A stretch of 64,000 nt of DNA from assembly GCF_055900595.2 (NCBI RefSeq), contig NZ_JBVWEU010000003.1. One strand, written 5' to 3'. The notes under the pieces were generated by a model that saw only the letters and a program-made list of their open reading frames with translations, made no database searches and was not told where the DNA came from. Within the stretch, counting starts at the first letter, position 1; every line of letters begins with the position of its first letter. Made by a program: the position numbers and the translations under genes. This stretch comes from a plasmid. Below, one piece after another: positions 1-41,142 of this stretch.

Positions 1-75
1 GCTTTCGCTCCTCTGAAGGGGCACATGAACGTCCCGTCGCCGGTATCCGGTTTATCTCACATCTTTCAGTCAGGA
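1..75 (+). promoter_or_regulatory. 3' end of an ssi/Frpo-like single-strand promoter element, truncated by the window edge, immediately upstream of ssb
   Basis: Window starts with GCTTTCGCTCCTC..., resembling the GGAGCTTCGCTCCTCCGGG hairpin at the 3' end of the two full repeat copies (6350-6380, 9208-9230); lies just upstream of the ssb RBS. Confidence 0.35.
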
Positions 76-82
76 GGTTCTT

Positions 83-610
83 ATGAGTGCACGTGGTATC
101 AACAAGGTCATCCTCGTCGGGCGTCTGGGCAATGATCCGGAAGTCCGTTACATCCCCAACGGGGGTGCAGTGGCAAACCTGCAGGTGGCTACGTCAGAAA
201 GCTGGCGCGACAAACAGACGGGGGAGATGCGGGAGCAGACGGAATGGCACCGCGTGGTGCTGTTCGGCAAGCTCGCGGAAGTGGCAGGTGAATATCTGCG
301 CAAGGGCGCGCAGGTCTACATCGAGGGGCAACTCCGTACCCGTAGCTGGGAAGATAACGGTATCACCCGTTACGTCACTGAAATTCTTGTTAAGACCACG
401 GGCACCATGCAGATGCTGGGGAGTGCACCACAGCAGAACGCTCAGGCGCAACCGAAGCCTCAGCAGAATGGGCAGCCACAGAGTGCTGACGCGACGAAAA
501 AAGGTGGCGCGAAAACGAAAGGCCGTGGACGTAAGGCCGCGCAGCCCGAGTCTCAGCCGCAACCGCCGGAGGGGGAGGATTACGGGTTTTCAGACGATAT
601 CCCGTTCTGA
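83..610 (+). CDS. ssb: Plasmid single-stranded DNA-binding protein
   Basis: 175 aa; OB-fold N-terminus, Gln/Pro-rich linker and the acidic C-terminal tail ending DDIPF typical of SSB; AGGAGG RBS upstream. Confidence 0.95.
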
Positions 611-628
611 CTGGCCTGACTGTGATAA

Positions 629-901
<273 letters not shown>

Positions 902-964
902 GAGAGGTGCCGGACGGGAACGCGTCCGGCAGACATACAACCATCCCGGTCAAAGGAGAAATAT

Positions 965-2923
965 ATGTCAGTTACAGAGTCTAAGACAAAAACGGAGCGT
1001 AAATCCAGCCGTAAACCTGCAAAAACGCAGGAAACAGTCCTGTCTGCCCTGCTGGCGCAGACGGAGGAAGTGAGCGTGCCGCTGGCCTCACTGATTAAGT
1101 CACCGCTGAATGTGCGCACGGTGCCGTATTCTGCGGAGTCCGTCAGTGAACTGGCTGATTCCATTAAGGGGGTCGGCCTGCTGCAGAATCTGGTTGTTCA
1201 TGCCCTGCCAGGTGACCGCCACGGTGTCGCCGCAGGTGGTCGCCGACTGGCTGCACTCAATATGCTGGCAGAGCGTGGCATCATTCCGGCGGACTGGCCT
1301 GTCCGCGTGAAGGTTATTCCGCAGGAACTGGCGACGGCGGCATCAATGACTGAAAACGGTCATCGTCGGGATATGCACCCTGCTGAACAGATTGCCGGAT
1401 TCCGCGCAATGGCGCAGGAAGGCAAAACACCTGCACAAATCGGTGATTTGCTGGGCTATTCACCCCGCCATGTCCAGCGAATGCTGAAACTGGCTGACCT
1501 TGCGCCTGTCATCCTCGATGCGCTGGCAGAAGACCTCATCACCACCGAGCACTGTCAGGCGCTGGCGCTGGAGAACGACACCGCTCGTCAGGTGCAGGTG
1601 TTTGAAGCCGCCTGTCAGTCAGGATGGGGCGGTAAACCGGAAGTGCAGACCATTCGTCGTCTGGTGACCGAAAGTGAAGTGGCGGTGGCGGGGAACAGTA
1701 AATTCCGCTTCGTGGGGGCTGATGCCTTCTCGCCAGATGAACTGCGCACCGATTTGTTCAGCGATGACGGGGACGGTTATGTCGACCGCGTGGCGCTCGA
1801 TGCCGCCCTGCTGGAAAAACTCCAGGCTGTCGCTGAACACCTTCGGGAAGCCGAAGGCTGGGAATGGTGCGCCGGACGTATGGAGCCTGTCGGTTTCTGC
1901 CGTGAGGATGCCGGAACATACCGCAGTCTGCCGGAGCCGGAAGCTGTGCTGACGGAGGCGGAAGAAGAACGCCTGAACGAACTGATGGCACGTTACGACG
2001 CGCTGGAAAATCAGTGTGAGGAATCCGACCTGCTGGAAGCAGAAATGAAGCTGATGCGCTGCATGGCGAAGGTCAGGGCGTGGACGCCGGAGATGCGTGC
2101 CGGAAGTGGCGTGGTGGTGTCCTGGCGTTATGGAAACGTATGTGTCCAGCGTGGTGTGCAGTTGCGCAGTGAGGATGACGTGGCTGACGACGCTGGCCGC
2201 ACGGAACAGGTGCAGGAGAAAGCCTCCGTGGAGGGAATCAGTCTGCCGCTGCTGACGAAAATGTCTTCCGAACGCACGCTGGCAGTCCAGGCGGCACTGA
2301 TGCAGCAGCCGGACAAATCCCTGGCACTGCTGGCATGGACGCTCTGCCTGAATGTGTTTGGCAGCGGAGCGTACAGTAAACCAGCACAAATCAGCCTGGA
2401 ATGTAAACATTATTCGCTGACCAGCGATGCGCCATCGGGGAAGGAAGGTGCCGCGTTCATGGCGATGATGGCAGAAAAAGCCCGTCTTGCGGCCCTGTTA
2501 CCGGGGGGATGGTCACGGGACATGACGACGTTCCTTTCACTCAGTCAGGAGGTGCTGTTATCCCTGCTCAGTTTCTGCACCGCGTGCAGCATCCACGGCG
2601 TTCAGACCCGCGAGTGTGGTCACACGCCACGCAGCCCGCTGGACACGCTGGAGAGCGCCATCGGTTTTCACATGCGCGACTGGTGGCAGCCGACAAAAGC
2701 AAACTTCTTCGGACACCTGAAAAAGCCGCAGATTATCGCAGCCCTGAATGAGGCAGGACTGTCCGGTGCCGCACGGGACGCGGAGAAGATGAAGAAAGGC
2801 GATGCGGCTGAACATGCAGAGTTCCATATGAAAGACAACCGCTGGGTGCCTGGCTGGATGTGTGCACCACGTCCACAGACGGATACCACTGAACGCACTG
2901 ATAACCTGGCTGATGCCGCCTGA
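965..2923 (+). CDS. ParB-like nuclease domain protein of the leading region
   Basis: 652 aa; N-terminal ParB/Sulfiredoxin-like segment (LQNLVVHALPGD...GGRRLAAL) plus HTH-like segment (PAQIGDLLGYSPRHVQRMLKLA); conserved position upstream of psiB. Confidence 0.8.
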   Translation: MSVTESKTKTERKSSRKPAKTQETVLSALLAQTEEVSVPLASLIKSPLNVRTVPYSAESVSELADSIKGVGLLQNLVVHALPGDRHGVAAGGRRLAALNMLAERGIIPADWPVRVKVIPQELATAASMTENGHRRDMHPAEQIAGFRAMAQEGKTPAQIGDLLGYSPRHVQRMLKLADLAPVILDALAEDLITTEHCQALALENDTARQVQVFEAACQSGWGGKPEVQTIRRLVTESEVAVAGNSKFRFVGADAFSPDELRTDLFSDDGDGYVDRVALDAALLEKLQAVAEHLREAEGWEWCAGRMEPVGFCREDAGTYRSLPEPEAVLTEAEEERLNELMARYDALENQCEESDLLEAEMKLMRCMAKVRAWTPEMRAGSGVVVSWRYGNVCVQRGVQLRSEDDVADDAGRTEQVQEKASVEGISLPLLTKMSSERTLAVQAALMQQPDKSLALLAWTLCLNVFGSGAYSKPAQISLECKHYSLTSDAPSGKEGAAFMAMMAEKARLAALLPGGWSRDMTTFLSLSQEVLLSLLSFCTACSIHGVQTRECGHTPRSPLDTLESAIGFHMRDWWQPTKANFFGHLKKPQIIAALNEAGLSGAARDAEKMKKGDAAEHAEFHMKDNRWVPGWMCAPRPQTDTTERTDNLADAA

Positions 2924-2974
2924 TGAACAACCACACCGCCCCGCCGGAGACGGGGCGGCAGCAAGGGAGATACC

Positions 2975-3412
2975 GTGATGAAAACTGAACTGACCCTGAA
3001 TGTATTACAGACCATGAGTGCACAGGAATATGAAGATATCCGTGCTGCGGGAAGCGATATGCGCCGTAATCTCACTCACGAGGTGATGCGTGAAGTGGAC
3101 GCACCGGCTAACTGGATGATGAATGGCGAGTATGGCAGTGAGTTCGGGGGCTTTTTCCCCGTCCAGGTTCGTTTCACGCCAGCCCACGAACGTTTCCACC
3201 TGGTATTATGTTCGCCGGGAGAAGTCTCTCAGCTCTGGATGCTGGTTCTGGTGAATGGTGGTGGACAGCCTTTCGCCGTCGTTCAGGTGCAACATATCTT
3301 CACGCCTGTCGCGATCAGTCACACGCTGGCGCTCGCCGCGACACTTGATGCGCAGGGATACAGTGTTAACGACATCATTCATATTTTGATGGCAGAAGGA
3401 GGTCAGGCATGA
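2975..3412 (+). CDS. psiB: Plasmid SOS inhibition protein B
   Basis: 145 aa; near-identical over its length to PsiB as recalled ([13 protein letters not shown]...[13 protein letters not shown]). Confidence 0.95.
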
Positions 3413-34474: not shown

Positions 34475-35170
34475 TCAGATTCCTGCTGCGGCGTTACGGG
34501 AAACCATCTGGCTGATTTCCATGCCGCCGGGTTTGATTCGTGGGTCCACGCGCCGGACAGTGATTTCAAAGGTGAAGGCCTGCTCGGGGCGGGTGCTGGT
34601 CTGACCGACCAGACGCATCCTGACCGGATACTGGAATTTCCAGAACCAGATGCCGTTTTCCATCTGGCCCTGATTCACCAGCGTGCCGGCCCCGATAGTG
34701 GTTGTGAGGTTAAATTTCTCCTTTTTAATGGTGTCCAGAATGTTGGAGGCCTGAAGAGCATTCACATAGCCGGCAAAACCGGCTTCGGAAAAGCGTGGAG
34801 CCAGTGTCGTGATTTGTTTCCTGTAGTGGACAAAATCCAGATTAAAAGCTTCGCTCAGCGTCATGCTGCCAAACGTCATGACGTCGCTCTGACTCCAGGC
34901 TGGCTGACTGGTGGGGGCCAGGCGGACCAGCCGGCCATTGTCGGTGGCAAAGTATTCGCGCGTCACGTCGGTGGCATGCCAGTACTGTATGATATTGCCG
35001 GTCAGACTGATGACGAGAGCTGCGCTGCTACACAGCAAGGCCCTGACCAGTCCGGGAACCAGTGCGGCCCGTTGTTCTGACTGTGCGATGGTTCTGAGCA
35101 CGGGGTTATAAATATCTCCGCTGTTATCCGCTTCCGGTGAGACAGGGGAGGTGGGTTGTGCTTCGCTCAT
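34475..35170 (-). CDS. traM: TraM (DotI/IcmL-like)
   Basis: 231 aa; one TM helix; size as R64 TraM. Confidence 0.7.
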   Translation of the reverse strand: MSEAQPTSPVSPEADNSGDIYNPVLRTIAQSEQRAALVPGLVRALLCSSAALVISLTGNIIQYWHATDVTREYFATDNGRLVRLAPTSQPAWSQSDVMTFGSMTLSEAFNLDFVHYRKQITTLAPRFSEAGFAGYVNALQASNILDTIKKEKFNLTTTIGAGTLVNQGQMENGIWFWKFQYPVRMRLVGQTSTRPEQAFTFEITVRRVDPRIKPGGMEISQMVSRNAAAGI

Positions 35171-35181
35171 GGTGCTCCTGT

Positions 35182-35532
35182 TCAGAGGTTATAGTCTTTC
35201 CAGGGGTCGATATTCCCCGGCAGATGTTCATTCACCCGATCCACGACGGCATCACAGACCTGGTTTTCCAGGTCGCGGAGGAGTTTGTCCAGGCTGGGGA
35301 ACTGCGGAAGAGTGATGCTGACGTCCTTGATGCGGGACAGGCAGGACTGCAGGGAAGAGGCGACGTCATTCTCCCGCTGTGACCATGCCTGGCTGGCTGT
35401 GCGCGCCCGCTCCCAGGCGGCTCTGCTGCCGGCTTCGGCAGCGGCCCCCGCCCGGCAGGTGGCGGCACCTGCCACCGGTGATGCCAGGGTGATGCCGGTC
35501 AGTATGACCAGCAGCGTTTTTTTCATGTTCAT
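35182..35532 (-). CDS. traL: TraL small secreted protein
   Basis: 116 aa from ATGAACATGAAAAAA; signal peptide MNMKKTLLVILTGITLASPVAGAA. Confidence 0.7.
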   Translation of the reverse strand: MNMKKTLLVILTGITLASPVAGAATCRAGAAAEAGSRAAWERARTASQAWSQRENDVASSLQSCLSRIKDVSITLPQFPSLDKLLRDLENQVCDAVVDRVNEHLPGNIDPWKDYNL

Positions 35533-35548
35533 GGTCGTCCTTACCGGC

Positions 35549-38500
35549 TCATCGGCCGGGGCTGTGAGATTGTGCCTGTTGCAGAGTTTTTTCCTGCCTG
35601 TCCTCCGCCTTTTGGCTGTCAGACCACTCTTTCCAGGTCTGCTCAAAACCCAGAGAGCGGAAAAGCTTGTCCGGCTGCTCTTCCGGTTTATGGATGGCGG
35701 CAAACAACGGCGTATCCTGTTGCTTCAGGTGAAACTGCATCATTTGTGGGGCCGGACGCTGATGAGTATTCTCATCGTGGTTGACAGCTTCACCGTAGCC
35801 GGCAAACTGCAGACCGTTATCCGTCAGTGCATTGATGACCAGCTGACGGTTGTTTGTTGTCGGGGTGGCCAGTGCCGGGTAGAGGGTGCCGTTCAGACGG
35901 ACCACTCCCTGCAGATGCTCATCTGCGCTGTGGACCAGCAGAAGATTCAACTGACGATTGTCCTTATCGGCGGAGGCGACGGCAGGAATCAGTTCATCGG
36001 GGGCTTTACCAGCGAGGGGGAGTCGCATTGATTGATCCTGAGGTTCTGATGCAGGTTGCCTGTCTTCACCAATGTACAGATTATTGGGAGGATTTTTGGG
36101 GGAACGAACTTCCTGCATTATCTGTGGCCAGTGTTGCTGCATTTGTGACATTACCTGACTGAATGTTTTCATCGGAAATTCCAGGATATGCTGACCAGCA
36201 TGAGGAAGGTCATTATCGACGGTAATGCCGTTACTGACAGGAGTCATGGCCCAGATATTTCGCACCCATTCCGGTTTGCCCGGTGATGAAGGTGATCTCT
36301 CCCGGGCCTGCAATGTCAGCGTGACGGGGTCGCCTTTCTGGTGGTTTTTGACCAGTTCTTCCAGGCCTTTTCCCCAGTATTCCCGTTTGCCACTGCGGTT
36401 GGTGAGCTCCACAAAAAAGCAGCGCCCTTTTCCGGGCGCATACTCTTTTTCTCCGTAGTTTGTCAGGACGGCAGTCACACTTTCACCGGGGCTGAGCTTG
36501 CCGGGCGGCTCTTCCTCCGGTGTGTCGGGTTGCTGCGGCTGTGCACTGACAGGGGCTTTTTCTGGCGCTGACGACGGGGCGGCTGGTTGTTCCGGTCTGT
36601 CGGCCCGGGGGGCTTCAGCTTTTGCCGTGACCGGCGCTTCCGGATGCGGTGTTTCAGCCGTACTGCCTGCTGTTTGTTCAGCCTCTGCCTTCGGTGACAC
36701 AGGGGGTTCCGGTTGTGCCATTGTTGTTTCTTCCGGTGACTGGCGGTTGAGTTCCGGCGTGGGTCTGTGGGTGACAATGGCATCATGCACCATCTCTTTT
36801 TCCTTGCGGAGTTTTTCCAGTGCTGCCCTCTGGGCCGGGAGTTTCATGCGAACCTTGATGTCGTATTCGACAATCAGCTGCATGGCTTTTTGTTTAAAGG
36901 CATCACTGCCGGTCAGCTCGATAACGCCGCCATAGAAGTTGGTGGCCACAGCAAGGGCAGCCAGAACCTTTTTGTCATCCGCGCTGGCACCATCCACCAT
37001 TTCGAGACAATAGAGTCTGTCCAGGAAGGCTGGTTCGCCGTCAACACGGAAGAGCGCTGTCCTGTCGGGAAACTCTTCGTGCTCAAGATTTTTAATAATC
37101 TCGTCCAGGTTGTGCCGCTGCGGACTGTCGGGACGGCGGGGCGCAAAGATAATCGTGTCCGGTTCCGCTGACGATGTGTCTTCCGGGCTGTTTTCCGGTG
37201 GTGATGGTGGTGCGACCTCCTCTGTTGCTGTTTCAGCCTCCGTGGGCTTTTTCTCCTGAATAACGGAAGGTTCTGAGGTGCGTGATTTCCCACCGGTCAG
37301 AAAACGGCGCAGACGGCTGAAAAGCGATGGCGTTTCAGGGGGGGCTGCTTCATTCGCTGTGCTGGTCTCAGTGGCGGACACAAGACGCTCTTCCTGCAGT
37401 TTATCTTCAGCCGTCGGTTCAGCGGTGGCCTGCCGGACTGGCTGAGTTTCTGCTGGTTCAGAAGGTGAGGCTGTTTCTGCTGTGCCGGTGTTGTGAACAG
37501 TGGCAGCAACCGTGGCATCGGCATTGAGCTCCTCAGGCGGTGCGTCACGGTTGTTATCGGGGACGGCAGAGGCACTCTTTTCACTGGTATCCGTTGCAGA
37601 CAGAACATCCTCTTCCTGCGGTTTATTTTCTGCCGTTGCTTCAGGGGTTGCCTGCTGAACAGGCTCAGTCCCGGCAGGTTCAGAAGGTGAGGCTGTTTCT
37701 GTTGTATCGGTGTGGTGAGCCGTGGTCATCACAGTGGCATCAGCGTTGAGGTCTTCCGCAAATGCGCTCCAGTCGTCAGCGCTGGCCATGGAGACCTGCA
37801 GTTGTTCTTCAGTCTGCGTTGTGGTGGTGTGCTGTGTCCCGGTCGCGTCGGAGACGGAGGTTTCCGGTGTGTCGTCACCTGGGGAGAGCTCTTCTGCCTG
37901 TACGCTCTGGTTGTCAGCGGTGGTGGCAGAGGCATTTTTTTCACCGGTATCAGCGGCAGGTATAACGCTCTCCTGAGGTTTGTCTTCTGCTGTTGGTTCA
38001 GGGGAGGACTTCTGAACAGGCTGAATCTCTGCAGGTTCAGGAAGCGTTCCTGTTTCTGCTGTGTTGGTGTTGTGAGCGGTGTCTGTACCTGTGGCGTCTG
38101 TATTGAGGTCTTCCTGGTCGCCAGCGGTAGCCGCAGAGGTATTCTCTGTGCCGGTATCAGCGGCAGACGCAATATTCTCCAGTGGTTTATCCGGGGATAA
38201 CGTCTCCGTAGTTACTGACTGCAGGGATGCATAGGCGGCATAGTCATCTTCATATGCCTGGTTTTCTGTCTCTTCAGTGTGGATGTCATAAGGCGTATCC
38301 GGTGTCGCCAGCACCGTTTCCGGGGCTGTGCTCTGTTTGTTTTCAGGGGACATTTGTGGCTTCTCATCTTTTACCGGTGTGAATATCAGGTTGCCGATCA
38401 CGACAGCCTCACGGTGGTCGGCAGTGTCACTGTTGGGTGTGGGGATACCGATATGTTTTAACTGTGCGTTCATGACATGCTGAAAGTCGTCCCGTCCCCG

Positions 38501-39580
38501 GCTGGCGTCCAGGTCATTGAAATCGGTCAGTCCCTGTGCTTTTTCCTCCTCCGTAAAGGCCGGAATAATGACTTCGCCATTCGTGACTTCTGCGGCTTTT
38601 GTTGCACTAAAAACCCCCTTGTTAATTTCCCGTTGATGATCGTTGTCGGCACAGAAGACAAAGGGGCTGTCAGTCCAGATTTGGCGGGCATTTTCTGCCA
38701 CGGCAATCATATTGCCGGCATCAACTGTCATCAGAACCGGAAGGCCGGTGGCTTCGTGCAGGGAGGCGGCAGTAGCGTAACCTTCCGCAAATAACAGGGG
38801 ACGGCCATTTTCCGGGGTTCCGAAGGTGAACCAGTTGCCGGTTTTCTCGGAGTCTTTCAGAATGCGGGCATCCTTCCCGCCGGTGACCGGAATACGCTGG
38901 TACGAACGTATTTCCCCCCGGCCGTTGCTGAAGGGAATAACCAGCTCATTTTTATTGTTCAGCCGCACGCCAGGCGCGGCCCGGATGCCCTTGCGCGTCA
39001 GGTATTCATGTGCTGTTGCCTGTGGCAACCCGTTAATATAGGAGCGGGCATACCGGGCCTGTTTGTTGTACTGTTGCTGCAGTTTACGTGCGTTATCATC
39101 GCGCTGTTGCTGAGCGAATGCCCGCAGATGCAGTCTGGCCAGAGGATCGTGTTGTTCTCCGCCGGAAAATACCCAGTTTGTGGGACTGTCATCGGCGCTC
39201 CGGTAGTCGCGGTACCAGCCAGCGGGGCGCCCATCAAGATAGGCTTTGTATGCGCCACTTTTGGCCCCTTTTTTGTCATCCCGGGTGGCGACTCTGTGTA
39301 TGGCGCCATCCATCTGTGGCAATCCCTGAATAACCAGCCCGGCGTTTTCCAGGACCTGAGCAAATTCGGTGACCGGATCGCCGGCATCCATCGACAGTTC
39401 CTGCGGCCGGGGTAACCAGCGCTCCAGCAGAGAAAGTTCGGTACCTGCCCGGGCATACCAGAGTTTTTTTTCTGGATCCCATGCGACAGCTTTGCGGCCA
39501 TTTAACGGGGGTACTGCATTTTTTACGGCTTCTGTCTCCTCAGGCGGGACAGCAAGCCAGGTACGATATCTGGACTTCAT
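35549..39580 (-). CDS. sog: Sog DNA primase (TOPRIM primase transferred to the recipient), with an internal low-complexity repeat linker
   Basis: 1343 aa; N-terminal primase/TOPRIM-like region (LLFAEGYATAASL...FCADNDHQ); position between traL and traK as in R64. Confidence 0.85.
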   Translation of the reverse strand: MKSRYRTWLAVPPEETEAVKNAVPPLNGRKAVAWDPEKKLWYARAGTELSLLERWLPRPQELSMDAGDPVTEFAQVLENAGLVIQGLPQMDGAIHRVATRDDKKGAKSGAYKAYLDGRPAGWYRDYRSADDSPTNWVFSGGEQHDPLARLHLRAFAQQQRDDNARKLQQQYNKQARYARSYINGLPQATAHEYLTRKGIRAAPGVRLNNKNELVIPFSNGRGEIRSYQRIPVTGGKDARILKDSEKTGNWFTFGTPENGRPLLFAEGYATAASLHEATGLPVLMTVDAGNMIAVAENARQIWTDSPFVFCADNDHQREINKGVFSATKAAEVTNGEVIIPAFTEEEKAQGLTDFNDLDASRGRDDFQHVMNAQLKHIGIPTPNSDTADHREAVVIGNLIFTPVKDEKPQMSPENKQSTAPETVLATPDTPYDIHTEETENQAYEDDYAAYASLQSVTTETLSPDKPLENIASAADTGTENTSAATAGDQEDLNTDATGTDTAHNTNTAETGTLPEPAEIQPVQKSSPEPTAEDKPQESVIPAADTGEKNASATTADNQSVQAEELSPGDDTPETSVSDATGTQHTTTTQTEEQLQVSMASADDWSAFAEDLNADATVMTTAHHTDTTETASPSEPAGTEPVQQATPEATAENKPQEEDVLSATDTSEKSASAVPDNNRDAPPEELNADATVAATVHNTGTAETASPSEPAETQPVRQATAEPTAEDKLQEERLVSATETSTANEAAPPETPSLFSRLRRFLTGGKSRTSEPSVIQEKKPTEAETATEEVAPPSPPENSPEDTSSAEPDTIIFAPRRPDSPQRHNLDEIIKNLEHEEFPDRTALFRVDGEPAFLDRLYCLEMVDGASADDKKVLAALAVATNFYGGVIELTGSDAFKQKAMQLIVEYDIKVRMKLPAQRAALEKLRKEKEMVHDAIVTHRPTPELNRQSPEETTMAQPEPPVSPKAEAEQTAGSTAETPHPEAPVTAKAEAPRADRPEQPAAPSSAPEKAPVSAQPQQPDTPEEEPPGKLSPGESVTAVLTNYGEKEYAPGKGRCFFVELTNRSGKREYWGKGLEELVKNHQKGDPVTLTLQARERSPSSPGKPEWVRNIWAMTPVSNGITVDNDLPHAGQHILEFPMKTFSQVMSQMQQHWPQIMQEVRSPKNPPNNLYIGEDRQPASEPQDQSMRLPLAGKAPDELIPAVASADKDNRQLNLLLVHSADEHLQGVVRLNGTLYPALATPTTNNRQLVINALTDNGLQFAGYGEAVNHDENTHQRPAPQMMQFHLKQQDTPLFAAIHKPEEQPDKLFRSLGFEQTWKEWSDSQKAEDRQEKTLQQAQSHSPGR
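37330..38190 (-). repeat. Three tandem copies of a roughly 225-bp unit inside sog, encoding a Thr/Ala/Glu/Pro-rich linker
   Basis: Protein repeats of the form LNADATV.TAH.T.TAETASPSEPA.T.PV.QAT.E.TAE.K.QEE; the many overlapping antisense ORFs in the track here are repeat artefacts. Confidence 0.7.
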
Positions 39581-39643
39581 GTCGTTCTCCGGGGATTAAA
39601 GATGAGGGCGTTGTGATACGCCGGGATGATGGACAAAAGAGGG

Positions 39644-39934
39644 CTATTCTGGTCCGTGCCATTCACGGGGTAATTCTGTGCGGTGTCGGTACCACCAGGG
39701 ACGTCCTGATGCCTGCTTACCCTGAAGCAGGCTGTACAGACGTATACAGAGGGTGCGGACTGTCCAGCCGGAATATCCCAGGAGCATAAAAAACAGCAGA
39801 ATGCCGCTGCACACCCAGAATGTTGTTTTTGACGGATACGGAAACAACAGCAGGTAAATCATGGTAAACGGCAGGGGGACACCATAAATGTTGAGCGGTG
39901 GAGTTACATCCCGCCAGAAGCCTTCGCGTTTCAT
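39644..39934 (-). CDS. traK: TraK (IcmT-like small membrane protein)
   Basis: 96 aa, two TM helices; start overlaps the traJ stop. Confidence 0.7.
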   Translation of the reverse strand: MKREGFWRDVTPPLNIYGVPLPFTMIYLLLFPYPSKTTFWVCSGILLFFMLLGYSGWTVRTLCIRLYSLLQGKQASGRPWWYRHRTELPREWHGPE

Positions 39935-41142
39935 CGGGGGAACTCTCCGGCCGGGATGAAGAGCGCTGCTTCTGATTTCTCAATGCGGTCGTTCTGATAC
40001 ATGGTCAGAACCTGATCCCTTATCCGCCGTTTTTCCTGACGAATGATTTCGTCAATGTAATGTCCCCATGTTGCATGGGATTGTCCGGAGAGCGTATTGC
40101 GCAGTTCGTCAGTCATGACGATGTATTCCCGGACAGCCTGCCTGCCGCCGTCATTTGTTCTGACCAGTACCTGCACCAGAATGAACTGTACGAGGGAAAG
40201 CGTGGCTGCAGCCATCGAATCCCTGATTTCAGGAGGAAACAATCCCAGCAGGCGGGCAAAGGTTTCTCCGGGTGATTTTGTGTGCATGGTGCCGATACAA
40301 AAGTGTCCGGTATTACCCGCCTGGACTGCGGCATCTGCTGTTTCATAATCCCTGATTTCACCGATACCAATGATGTCCGGATTACGGCGAACGGCAGAGC
40401 GAAGTCCTGCAGCAAAACTTTCCACATCGCGCCCGATTTCGGCCTGATGGGGAGGCAGAAGGTCATTCTCTCCGCCCAGAATGTATTCCACCGGATCTTC
40501 ATAGGTCACTATTTTGCGATCGGGGAAATTTTTCAGAATGTGGCGATACAGTGCCGCCGCCAGTGTGGATTTCCCGGAGCCGGTTTCTCCGCAGATGAAG
40601 CCCAGGCCGGTTTTTCTGAGCATGGCATCCAGCAGATCCGGTTCAATATTCATAGTGAGGATGTCCGGAATATCTGACGGGATCACCCGCATGGTGACGG
40701 AAATGGCTTTTTCTTCTGTTGCCGATGTTCCCTGTATCAGGTGGCAGCGCAGGCGAACACGCTGACCTCGTTGCAGGCCATAGCGACCGGAGGCATCTCC
40801 GCTGACCTGAATGGTACGATCCACGGGATGACCTGACAGAACCCGGGGAAGAACCTCCCGCCCAAACAGCTCATCACTCAGTGCCATCATGATGGAGGAC
40901 GGAAGGGGATTTACGGATGAGCGAACCCGCCGTCCAAAGCGACTGACGGATACCGGTGAACCGCCGGTCAGATCAATATCACTGACGCGGTGGCGGGCAC
41001 ACCAGGCAAAAAAATGGCGAAACTCTTCTGCCGTAAAACGGGAGAAGGGGAAGGTACCGAAGTCATCTGGTGATATCATTTTTCTCTCCTTCGGTGCTGA
41101 CAAGAGGGCGCCAGCGCGATTTCTGCAGCGTAAATTCAGCAT
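39931..41142 (-). CDS. traJ: TraJ (DotB/VirB11-like secretion ATPase)
   Basis: 403 aa (true start may be the internal Met at about 41079); Walker A GETGSGKST. Confidence 0.85.
   Translation of the reverse strand: MLNLRCRNRAGALLSAPKERKMISPDDFGTFPFSRFTAEEFRHFFAWCARHRVSDIDLTGGSPVSVSRFGRRVRSSVNPLPSSIMMALSDELFGREVLPRVLSGHPVDRTIQVSGDASGRYGLQRGQRVRLRCHLIQGTSATEEKAISVTMRVIPSDIPDILTMNIEPDLLDAMLRKTGLGFICGETGSGKSTLAAALYRHILKNFPDRKIVTYEDPVEYILGGENDLLPPHQAEIGRDVESFAAGLRSAVRRNPDIIGIGEIRDYETADAAVQAGNTGHFCIGTMHTKSPGETFARLLGLFPPEIRDSMAAATLSLVQFILVQVLVRTNDGGRQAVREYIVMTDELRNTLSGQSHATWGHYIDEIIRQEKRRIRDQVLTMYQNDRIEKSEAALFIPAGEFPR

Follow-up and report, generated by a model that had tools for sequence, protein, structure and literature searches.

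Diverged Repeat Units in the Acidic Linker of a Sog-Type Conjugative Primase from an IncK/B/O/Z-Type Plasmid

Analysis of a 64,000-nucleotide stretch of plasmid DNA (contig NZ_JBVWEU010000003.1 of GCF_055900595.2; here called the window) revealed three diverged copies, A, B, and C, of a 66- to 74-aa unit rich in Thr, Ala, Glu, Ser, and Pro in the linker of the conjugative primase Sog. Three units are the rule for the sog linker in plasmids of the IncK/B/O/Z type. The region is probably an ordinary disordered acidic spacer that was built by old duplications and has been selected mainly on its bulk properties.

The sog gene and its repeat units

From its sequence and position, the gene can be assigned to the Sog-type DNA primases of the I-complex plasmids (SogL/SogS). 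The identification as sog made in the earlier note is upheld by the Toprim_3 core, the LPD7 domain, the traK and traL neighbors, and the homology to R64 (Table 1). The gene lies between homologues of traK and traL, as in R64 and ColIb-P9, and the order in near-identical plasmids is traJ, traK (IcmT), sog, traL, traM (DotI), and traN; the sog genes of IncK2/Z plasmids are 97.7 to 99.5% identical to that of the window. In R64, a nuc gene stands between traK and sog, whereas it is absent from the closest IncK2/Z relatives of the window. The N-terminal DUF5710 and Toprim/EGYATA primase domain is shared with R64 and ColIb-P9 at 76% amino acid identity; EGYATA itself (aa 265 to 270, inside the Toprim_3 core) is invariant in the Sog alignment, as is FAEGYATAASLHEATG between the window Sog and R64. 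The LPD7/C-terminal region is shared as well; for R64, 510 aligned codons give an amino acid identity of 61%.

According to the literature, Sog of ColIb-P9 and R64 has primase activity and passes into the recipient cell. SogL and SogS move to the recipient, and coating of the transferred strand has been proposed (PMC6112013); conjugation of an I-complex plasmid needs sogLS (PMC10286972). In transposon data, effects of the linker are inseparable from those of the downstream domains (PMC4288162). SogS, of 844 aa, arises by translational reinitiation (PMC6112013), and this published length corresponds to a start at Met412 of R64 Sog. The matching internal methionine of the window Sog, Met410, is the putative SogS start and would yield a product of 934 aa; GTG replaces this start codon in one allele. 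The "sogS" of pOU7519, considered as a guide to the start, proved to be merely a truncated remnant, and the literature start was used instead.

Table 1. Features of sog in the window (positions are those of the window)
Feature	Residues	Position	Strand	Evidence
sog (SogL) ORF, IncK2/Z type	1,343 aa	35549..39580	-	ORF call, sog of relatives
Toprim_3 primase core	264-364	38489..38791	-	Pfam PF13362, 28.1 bits (cutoff 27.2)
Predicted SogS start codon (ATG)	Met410	38351..38353	-	Aligned with R64 Met412
Invariant aromatic-acidic island ENQAYEDDYAAYASLQ	438-453	38222..38269	-	Allele alignment; AF2 helix
Half-copy of unit	462-488	38117..38197	-	Matches C-terminal half of unit A, z = 8.9
Repeat unit A	489-562	37895..38116	-	HMM i-E-value 7e-38
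Nonrepeat spacer X, 48 aa	563-610	37751..37894	-	No significant similarity to units
Invariant island ADDWSAFAEDLN	600-611	37748-37783	-	Ends spacer X, runs into start of unit B
Repeat unit B	611-684	37529..37750	-	HMM i-E-value 3e-39
Repeat unit C, head to tail with B	685-750	37331..37528	-	HMM i-E-value 2e-35
Conserved basic segment SLFSRLRRFLTGGK, closing the acidic linker	753-765	37286..37324	-	R64 alignment; AF2 helix
LPD7 domain	845-925	36806..37048	-	Pfam PF18821, E = 2.9e-9; AF2 pLDDT 58-86

Local alignments of the unit pairs scored 175 (A-B), 154 (A-C), and 200 (B-C), against 41 to 46 ± 7 for shuffled sequences (z = 16 to 23); none of 1,000 composition-preserving shuffles equaled the observed score, and amino acid identity between the copies was 51 to 62%. 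The self-comparison of Sog that had been proposed, carried out as a diagonal-window scan, showed diagonals displaced by 74, 119, and 193 aa, whose best 25-aa windows matched at 19, 15, and 16 residues, respectively. At the DNA level, the 222-nt copies at 37335-37556 and 37557-37778 are 72% identical, and a third copy (37971-38114) has an identity of 76 to 78%. The repeats had been described from the letters alone as three tandem copies of about 75 aa at 37330-38190; the number and the extent agree with the mapped C, B, spacer, A, and half-copy (37331-38197), but only B and C lie head to tail, with a period of 74 aa, and spacer X sets A apart from B. Their placement between the primase domain and the C-terminal region and their Thr/Ala/Glu/Pro-rich character were also confirmed. 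A weak unit-HMM domain at aa 434 to 489 overlaps the half-copy, and spacer X was rejected as a degenerate fourth unit because it does not resemble the units significantly (z ≤ 0.6). The positions invariant in all units and alleles are N2, D4, H12, AET, EPA, and Val31.

Because the copies are too diverged, Tandem Repeats Finder reported no array over positions 35000 to 41000; BLASTP of Sog against itself returned the identity hit alone. A query of a 5.8-billion-protein database with the linker retrieved only partial Sog fragments (E. coli and Shigella), with the unit in no non-Sog protein, and a limited full-text search of the literature found no description of Sog repeats.

Comparison with R64 and ColIb-P9 Sog

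R64 SogL, which the earlier note gave as about 1,255 aa long, has exactly this length, as do the Sog proteins of ColIb-P9 and pCH42; NC_005014 served as plasmid record in place of AP005147. Between the shared anchors FTPV and FLTGGK, the linker measures 308 aa in R64 and 356 aa in the window. The 88 extra residues of the window Sog are distributed over the linker (48), the sequence just downstream (18), and, by difference, a region farther downstream (about 24), where the alignment shows insertions in the window Sog alone, within its second Pro/Ala-rich segment. Since the linker takes up just 48 of these 88 residues, the repeat units, about 215 aa together, replace a nonrepetitive linker rather than add to one. 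The R64/ColIb-P9 linker resembles that of the window in being acidic and low in complexity, with equal composition and a nearly equal net charge (-55 versus -56), and differs in being nonrepetitive and not alignable to the units. The unit HMM had no match in R64, ColIb-P9, or pCH42 Sog even at E ≤ 10, and the R64 linker contains no internal repeat above shuffled background. The idea that R64 retains a single diverged unit was dropped, as local alignments of the units to its linker were like those of shuffles (z ≤ 1.6).

Short conserved islands lie around the units. The ENQAYEDDYAAYASLQ island is identical in four of five IncK2/Z-type alleles, pMB8093_2 differing by one conservative E-to-D change, and has counterparts in R64 (the related EEYENYSAYQELM) and P0030 (GEYDDFRAYEEMM). 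The two aromatic-acidic islands stand in the opposite order in R64 Sog, and R64 SFLDKARGFFTRKK aligns with the basic segment SLFSRLRRFLTGGK.

Distribution and evolution of the linker

In PLSDB, the linker was found in 444 plasmids, 440 of which cover at least 80% of it, with spans of 1,239 to 1,299 nt (1,263 nt in the window); among complete E. coli genomes, 318 of 5,426 carry it, always on plasmids. Every allele sampled had three full units by the unit HMM, and the Sog proteins of IncK1, IncK2, IncZ, and IncB/O plasmids (pCT [NC_014477], pTMSA970, and pLH50-c-A) share the three units, the half-copy, and the spacer, the pLH50-c-A linker being 99.5% identical to that of the window. The window's own allele is rare (about 12 PLSDB records at ≥90%). 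The commonest IncK/B/O/Z-type allele (about 350 of 444) has 80 to 90% nucleotide identity and carries 10 inserted residues in the unit A tail, and a third allele occurs in about 82 PLSDB plasmids at 60 to 80% identity. Variants in unit number are rare. The one in pPK8275-82kb has four units, and its extra 360 nt are chimeric, combining the head portion of B, the tail portion of A, and a spacer of the pTMSA970 type; in a two-unit variant (draft contig GCA_008756765.1), B is missing exactly. H100 (pB17EC0268-1), considered as a deletion variant, is actually a 1,365-aa three-unit allele in which an extra 12 residues are inserted in the unit A tail.

The duplications that produced the units appear to be old, since dS between units (0.56 to 0.78) exceeds that among IncK2/Z alleles (0.09 to 0.37) and is below that to R64 (1.3 to 2.3); this dating leaves out gene conversion among the units, a process evident from unit C of pMB8093_2. 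The ratio dN/dS is 0.5 to 0.6 in the linker, compared with 0.10 to 0.19 in the flanking domains, and 0.39 to 0.49 between paralogous units. With values below 1 and several invariant positions, the unit sequence is not free to drift, and this limited drift fits a binding-module reading as well. In a set of 33 Sog-like primases, made up of a single representative for each cluster at 50% identity, the linkers range from 94 to 714 aa and are always net negative (-8 to -63), and about 13 of the set have linker repeats of their own, with periods of 14 to 185 aa. The linkers of the family seem to have been rebuilt repeatedly by duplications within them, acidity and disorder being all that was kept, which argues for a function based on bulk properties.

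Function of the linker and alternative explanations

The window linker (T, 16.7%; A, 15.5%; E, 12.4%; S, 8.6%; P, 8.6%; D, 7.8%) has a net charge of -56 over 356 aa and is predicted to be an intrinsically disordered acidic region. It falls on the disordered side of the charge-hydropathy plot, with 12% hydrophobic residues versus 27% in the primase domain, and has no Pfam match at E ≤ 1 and no relatives in the PDB. AF2 assigned aa 380 to 804 a pLDDT of about 27 to 39, below 50 throughout and without secondary structure save three short helices, with LPD7 as a control; these low values are weaker evidence than they appear, since the alignment held only eight sequences and a truncated primase control scored poorly (26 to 77).

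We suggest that in SogL the spacer connects the Toprim primase domain at the N terminus with the LPD7/C-terminal part and that it would also make up the N-terminal part of SogS, the shorter in-frame product. In the IncB/O/K/Z branch of the I-complex plasmids, a segment of about 74 aa was probably duplicated to give the half-copy, A, the 48-aa spacer, B, and C, with later divergence of the copies. Selection appears to act mainly on length, negative charge, and lack of structure, together with the two short aromatic-acidic motifs, and less on the sequence of the units; the repeats would then be the way in which the linker was made and not a separate device. Being directly oriented and similar in DNA sequence, the units probably recombine out of register now and then, leaving two, three, or four units. 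The linker might serve as a flexible, DNA-repelling tether that maintains Sog in a soluble, extended form suited to type IV secretion into the recipient and leaves the primase domain free to move with respect to the C-terminal part, which is associated with ssDNA. E. coli SSB has a disordered linker and an acidic tip. The linkers and tails of ssDNA-binding proteins resemble the Sog linker in being low in complexity, disordered, conserved in composition and not in sequence, and variable in length by lineage, with short acidic-aromatic motifs embedded. They are not homologous to the Sog linker, which is far longer and more acidic, and the resemblance is one of analogy only.

The earlier note explained the excess length over R64 by the triplication; such an expansion is not peculiar to the window. 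A lineage- or isolate-specific tandem triplication accounting for all 88 residues would agree with the lack of the unit in the 1,255-aa R64 and ColIb-P9 proteins and with the 1,343 aa of the window protein, but the linker's share of the excess is small for three units, the copies are old, and about 440 plasmids of the window's sog type, including pCT, have three units as well. The repeat count thus differs from that of R64/ColIb-P9 Sog (zero) and equals that of IncK/B/O/Z Sog (three). Since R64 has a long linker without units and the relatives share all three, this reading is largely refuted, and we regard it as quite unlikely. It is scarcely credible that the repeats constitute a DNA-level signal, either repeated protein-binding sites or genes in the alternative-frame ORFs at 37297-37608, 37712-38200, and 37729-38172. 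Direct DNA repeats and other-frame ORFs of 103 to 162 aa do exist; however, the copies are only 72 to 78% identical and lack an exact conserved core, substitutions between them are biased to synonymous sites in the sog frame, and sog is the sole feature annotated here in databases. Nor do the repeats explain a cluster of spurious ORFs, as had been supposed: only 3 of the 12 overlapping ORFs of at least 100 aa inside sog fall in the repeats (22% of the gene), no denser than elsewhere, and alternative-frame stops occur at 10.4 per kb per frame there versus 10.5 to 10.8 in the rest of sog. Two frames in the region contain few stops on account of its low T content (14%) and not of its repetition.

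A folded repeat domain, for example of beta-rich or Ig-like modules, is highly improbable: 66 to 74 aa is within the range of small domains and the repeats are conserved over about 440 plasmids, yet AF2 (pLDDT of about 30) placed secondary structure in no unit, hydrophobic residues are few, the net charge is -0.16 per residue, Pfam and PDB matches are absent, and dN/dS is three to six times that of the flanking domains. We also consider it unlikely that the units are multivalent docking modules of about 74 aa, each binding a partner (host SSB, a T4SS coupling or chaperone protein, or a recipient defense factor), with copy number tuning transfer. The invariant positions, a paralogue dN/dS that is not 1, the retention of three copies in nearly all plasmids, and the flanking aromatic-acidic islands would be expected of such modules; against them, linkers without any unit suffice in R64, P0030, and other relatives, the repeats of other family members differ in unit and period, the units lack a hydrophobic core or predicted structure, and the conserved islands fall outside the units. 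A version in which SogS would bear a multivalent docking platform composed of the units and the islands YEDDYAAYASL and DDWSAFAEDL, recruiting within the recipient a partner of host or plasmid origin (SSB or a replisome or defense component, for instance), also seems to us unlikely.

The preferred reading, that of a disordered acidic spacer, has little consequence for biology at large, and the value of the findings on the Sog linker is descriptive; this was already known as a conjugative primase gene with near-identical sequences in hundreds of deposited plasmids. When IncB/O/K/Z-type Sog is compared with R64, length alone misleads, since the linkers are nonhomologous yet equivalent in charge and composition. 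The at least three divergent linker alleles, exchanged between plasmids and with occasional changes in copy number, could be a typing marker, and the two invariant motifs of aromatic and acidic residues, both short, are candidates for sites of interaction. If the docking platform were real, variation between two and four units and cassette-like allele exchange would tune conjugation efficiency or host range.

The linker of the window's Sog

The repeat feature of Sog is real but ordinary: it is the disordered acidic linker, built from repeats, that is typical of Sog proteins in the IncB/O/K/Z lineage, rather than an expansion peculiar to the window. Sequences of the gene and of near-identical relatives were deposited long ago; a limited full-text literature search found no paper describing these repeats. 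In a self-comparison of Sog, strong diagonals lay 74, 119, and 193 aa off the main one, with up to 19 identities in the best 25-residue windows, and a repeat search at the DNA level found two adjacent copies (72% identity) and a third match (76 to 78% identity). Pairwise local alignments of units A, B, and C scored 154 to 200, against 41 to 46 ± 7 in composition-preserving shuffles (z = 16 to 23; observed score reached by 0 of 1000 shuffles); the repeat is therefore not a low-complexity effect. The second half of unit A is also matched by a half-copy (z = 8.9), and shuffle-tested alignment of spacer X, which lies between A and B, with the repeat unit gave no significant similarity. The earlier note had proposed three tandem copies of a T/A/E/P-rich unit; three copies of a T/A/E/S/P-rich unit of about 74 aa do lie where it placed them, strictly tandem for B and C only. 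Tandem Repeats Finder detected no array in the sog region because the copies are too diverged, sharing only 67 to 73% nucleotide and 51 to 62% amino acid identity.

Coordinates of features in and around the Sog linker
Feature	Sog aa	Window nt	Strand	Remark
sog ORF		35549-39580	minus	4032 nt, 1343 aa
DUF5710	6-57			domain match
Toprim_3 primase core	264-364			Pfam, just over gathering score
Met410, codon aligned with the R64 SogS start	410	38351-38353	minus	ATG
Island ENQAYEDDYAAYASLQ	438-453	38222-38269	minus	aromatic-acidic
Half-copy	462-488
Unit A	489-562	37895-38116	minus
Spacer X	563-610	37751-37894	minus
Island ADDWSAFAEDLN	600-611	37748-37783	minus	aromatic-acidic
Unit B	611-684	37529-37750	minus
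Unit C	685-750	37331-37528	minus
Adjacent DNA copies		37335-37556, 37557-37778		222 nt each
Third DNA copy		37971-38114		144-nt match
LPD7	845-925			domain match
Second low-complexity segment	936-1020	36521-36775	minus	Pro/Ala/Glu-rich, C-terminal to LPD7
12-residue patch	1094-1106	~36260-36300	minus	differs between alleles

The window's Sog has the EGYATA primase motif, and its Toprim_3 score passes the Pfam gathering threshold when the N-terminal part is scanned by itself. In DNA, the gene is 97.7 to 99.5% identical to one annotated as "LPD7 domain-containing protein" in E. coli plasmids of types IncK2/Z, MOBP, and MPF_I, where it is flanked by traJ/traK (IcmT) and traL/traM/traN. The IncI1 plasmids R64 and ColIb-P9 have a homologous sog of 1255 aa at the equivalent location, but there a phospholipase-D-type nuclease gene (nuc) separates traK from sog (R64 35342-36000 versus window 39581-39930), whereas in the closest IncK2/Z relatives of the window sog directly follows traK; in pCT and pB17EC0268-1, traK and sog are separated by a different gene, hypothetical and 582 nt long. 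Because of this identity, the gene neighborhood, and the comparison with R64 and ColIb-P9, we assign the window's sog to the K/B/O/Z branch of I-complex plasmids, not to IncI1.

The 1255 aa given for R64 SogL in the earlier note is correct, and an HMM of the unit matched none of the R64, ColIb-P9, and pCH42 Sog proteins, even at permissive thresholds. Its attribution of the excess length to triplication fails, as only 48 of the 88 extra residues lie in the acidic linker; 18 follow immediately past it, about 24 (by difference) lie further downstream, where the alignment has window-only insertions around aa 936 to 1020, a second Pro/Ala-rich segment, and the N-terminus contributes minus 2. That second segment has weak self-similarity at a 19-aa offset (score 53, about that of shuffled maxima). 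Between the conserved anchors FTPV and FLTGGK, the linker measures 308 residues in R64 and 356 in the window, with T/A/E/P/S/D/Q fractions of 0.73 and 0.74 and net charges of -55 and -56, respectively; about 215 aa of units thus replace an equally long nonrepetitive acidic linker. Internal similarity in the R64 linker does not rise above background (best window score of 42 versus 40 ± 4 in shuffles, and 96 for the window's linker), and none of the three units aligned to it better than chance. The suggestion that the repeats explain a cluster of spurious ORFs is likewise weak: 3 of the 12 overlapping ORFs of at least 100 aa wholly inside sog fall within the 22% of the gene that the repeats occupy, and the density of alternative-frame stops in the linker (10.4 per kb per frame) equals that in the remaining sog (10.5 to 10.8). 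Two frames of the repeat region are stop-poor because it is only 14% T.

Alleles, recombination, and the wider family

A PLSDB search with the linker and its flanks (1263 nt) gave matches in 444 plasmids, 440 of them with at least 80% coverage, and the matched span was 1239 to 1299 nt in 58 of 60 records sampled across these matches; the two exceptions were looked into. Of 5426 complete E. coli genomes, 318 carry units B and C; all copies are on plasmids, none on a chromosome. Every allele sampled with the unit HMM (pCT, IR53017 unnamed4, pTMSA970, pMB8093_2, pB17EC0268-1, and pLH50-c-A) has three full units and a weak leading half-copy. The PLSDB matches comprise at least three linker alleles; that of the window is rare (about 12 records at ≥90% identity), with about 350 records at 80 to 90% and about 82 at 60 to 80%. 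Sliding identity against the window's sog revealed mosaicism between plasmids. The pTMSA970 gene is 96 to 100% identical outside the linker and 68 to 88% within it, where its profile is almost exactly that of IR53017 in the same bins, and that of pLH50-c-A is 97 to 100% identical over the first 2400 nt, 91 to 99% over nt 2400 to 3300, and 61 to 80% over the last ~600 nt.

All 28 database protein clusters matching the linker (P0001 to P0028) are partial Sog fragments, most of them on contigs of ~0.6 to 1.8 kb and four as short ORFs on contigs of 52 to 178 kb; judging by the short contigs, assemblies from short reads probably often break near the variable linker, possibly through co-resident I-complex plasmids with common flanks. 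Further downstream, the patch at aa 1094 to 1106 reads RSPSSPGKPEWV in the window, pPK8275, and pTMSA970 and TFRLSGETRDRI elsewhere among the alleles. In its +2 frame the window encodes EITFITGQTGMGAK, and the resemblance of this to EQFILPGEQKARF of R64 suggests a compensated frameshift in the window allele.

Two variants depart from three copies. The Sog of pPK8275-82kb (record L001, 3001-7392) has four units in 1463 aa; its extra 360 nt consist of a unit B head, 96 to 100% identical to the window's B, a unit A tail, and a pTMSA970-type spacer, a chimera of the kind expected when units A and B of two different alleles cross over out of register, which points to unequal recombination. P0029, a putative two-unit protein from a draft contig (GCA_008756765.1; L012 1501-4750), is a pMB8093_2-type allele exactly without unit B, with its junction in the shared sequence AEDLNAD. 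Judging from these variants, the repeats appear to be occasionally recombinogenic, three copies being overwhelmingly normal.

Synonymous divergence between units (0.56 to 0.78) exceeds that among IncK2/Z alleles (0.09 to 0.37) and is below that from R64 (1.3 to 2.3), which dates the unit duplications later than the separation from the IncI1 lineage but earlier than the radiation of present alleles; gene conversion between units complicates this dating, as the first half of unit C in pMB8093_2 resembles the window's unit B.

A search with the C-terminal 543 aa of Sog against 1.84 billion proteins, each representing one 50%-identity cluster, gave 220 relatives. In 33 Sog-like proteins that are full length and have an EGYATA-type motif, the linker from primase to C-terminal region ranges from 94 to 714 aa, is negatively charged in all (-8 to -63), and is 53 to 85% T/A/E/P/S/D/Q. 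In about 13 of the 33, the linker is itself significantly repetitive (periods of 14, 15, 16, 23, 34, 35, 60, 64, 66, 78, 169, and 185 aa), and the window's unit had no match among these repeats; such unrelated repeats indicate that internal duplication is probably a recurrent, independent way of building a Sog linker, in which acidity and low complexity appear to be what is conserved.

Possible functions of the linker

The charge-hydropathy boundary places every unit with disordered sequences, and hydrophobic residues make up 12% of the linker versus 27% of the primase domain. With E ≤ 1 as the limit, no Pfam family matched the linker; nor did any PDB sequence match Sog. AlphaFold2, run on aa 250 to 927 with an 8-sequence alignment, predicted aa 380 to 804 at a pLDDT of ~27 to 39 without secondary structure save three short helices, compared with 58 to 86 for the LPD7 control region; we regard this as supportive rather than strong evidence of disorder, since the alignment was shallow and the truncated primase control mediocre.

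In R64, SogS (844 aa) is made by translational reinitiation (PMC6112013). This length points to Met412 of R64, with which Met410 of the window is aligned; one allele has GTG at the aligned position. If Met410 is used, SogS here would be 934 aa, with the repeat region as its N-terminal third. A TraDIS screen found that an I-complex plasmid needs sogLS to conjugate (PMC10286972), and for pESBL the SogS part proved essential and part of the SogL-specific region dispensable (PMC4288162); such transposon data are uninformative for the linker itself because insertions truncate downstream domains.

The best-supported reading, with the role inferred, is that the linker is an entropic, negatively charged spacer. 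Disordered, DNA-repelling, and tolerant of sequence turnover, it would serve as a tether between the primase domain and the C-terminal part, for which a role in coating the transferred strand has been proposed (PMC6112013), and would keep the abundantly exported Sog soluble and extended. The dN/dS of the linker is 0.51 to 0.62 between IncK2/Z alleles and 0.46 between the window and R64, compared with 0.10 to 0.19 between alleles in the flanking domains. The main rival, which makes a docking module of each unit, is favored by some columns invariant in all units and alleles and by a dN/dS below 1 between paralogous units (0.39 to 0.49), but relatives function without the unit.

Apart from the units, the linker contains two aromatic-acidic islands, ENQAYEDDYAAYASLQ and ADDWSAFAEDLN, that are essentially invariant among IncK2/Z alleles in fast-evolving surroundings, the sole change being E to D in pMB8093_2. 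Their R64 counterparts, EEYENYSAYQELM and DKDWREFEAELS, occur in swapped order; related motifs are also found in the database protein P0030, and P0037 has the W motif only. Both islands coincide with predicted helices, two of the three in the low-confidence AlphaFold2 stretch; the remaining one corresponds to SLFSRLRRFL, the basic segment that closes the linker. The two islands are candidate short linear interaction motifs and may matter more than the repeats.
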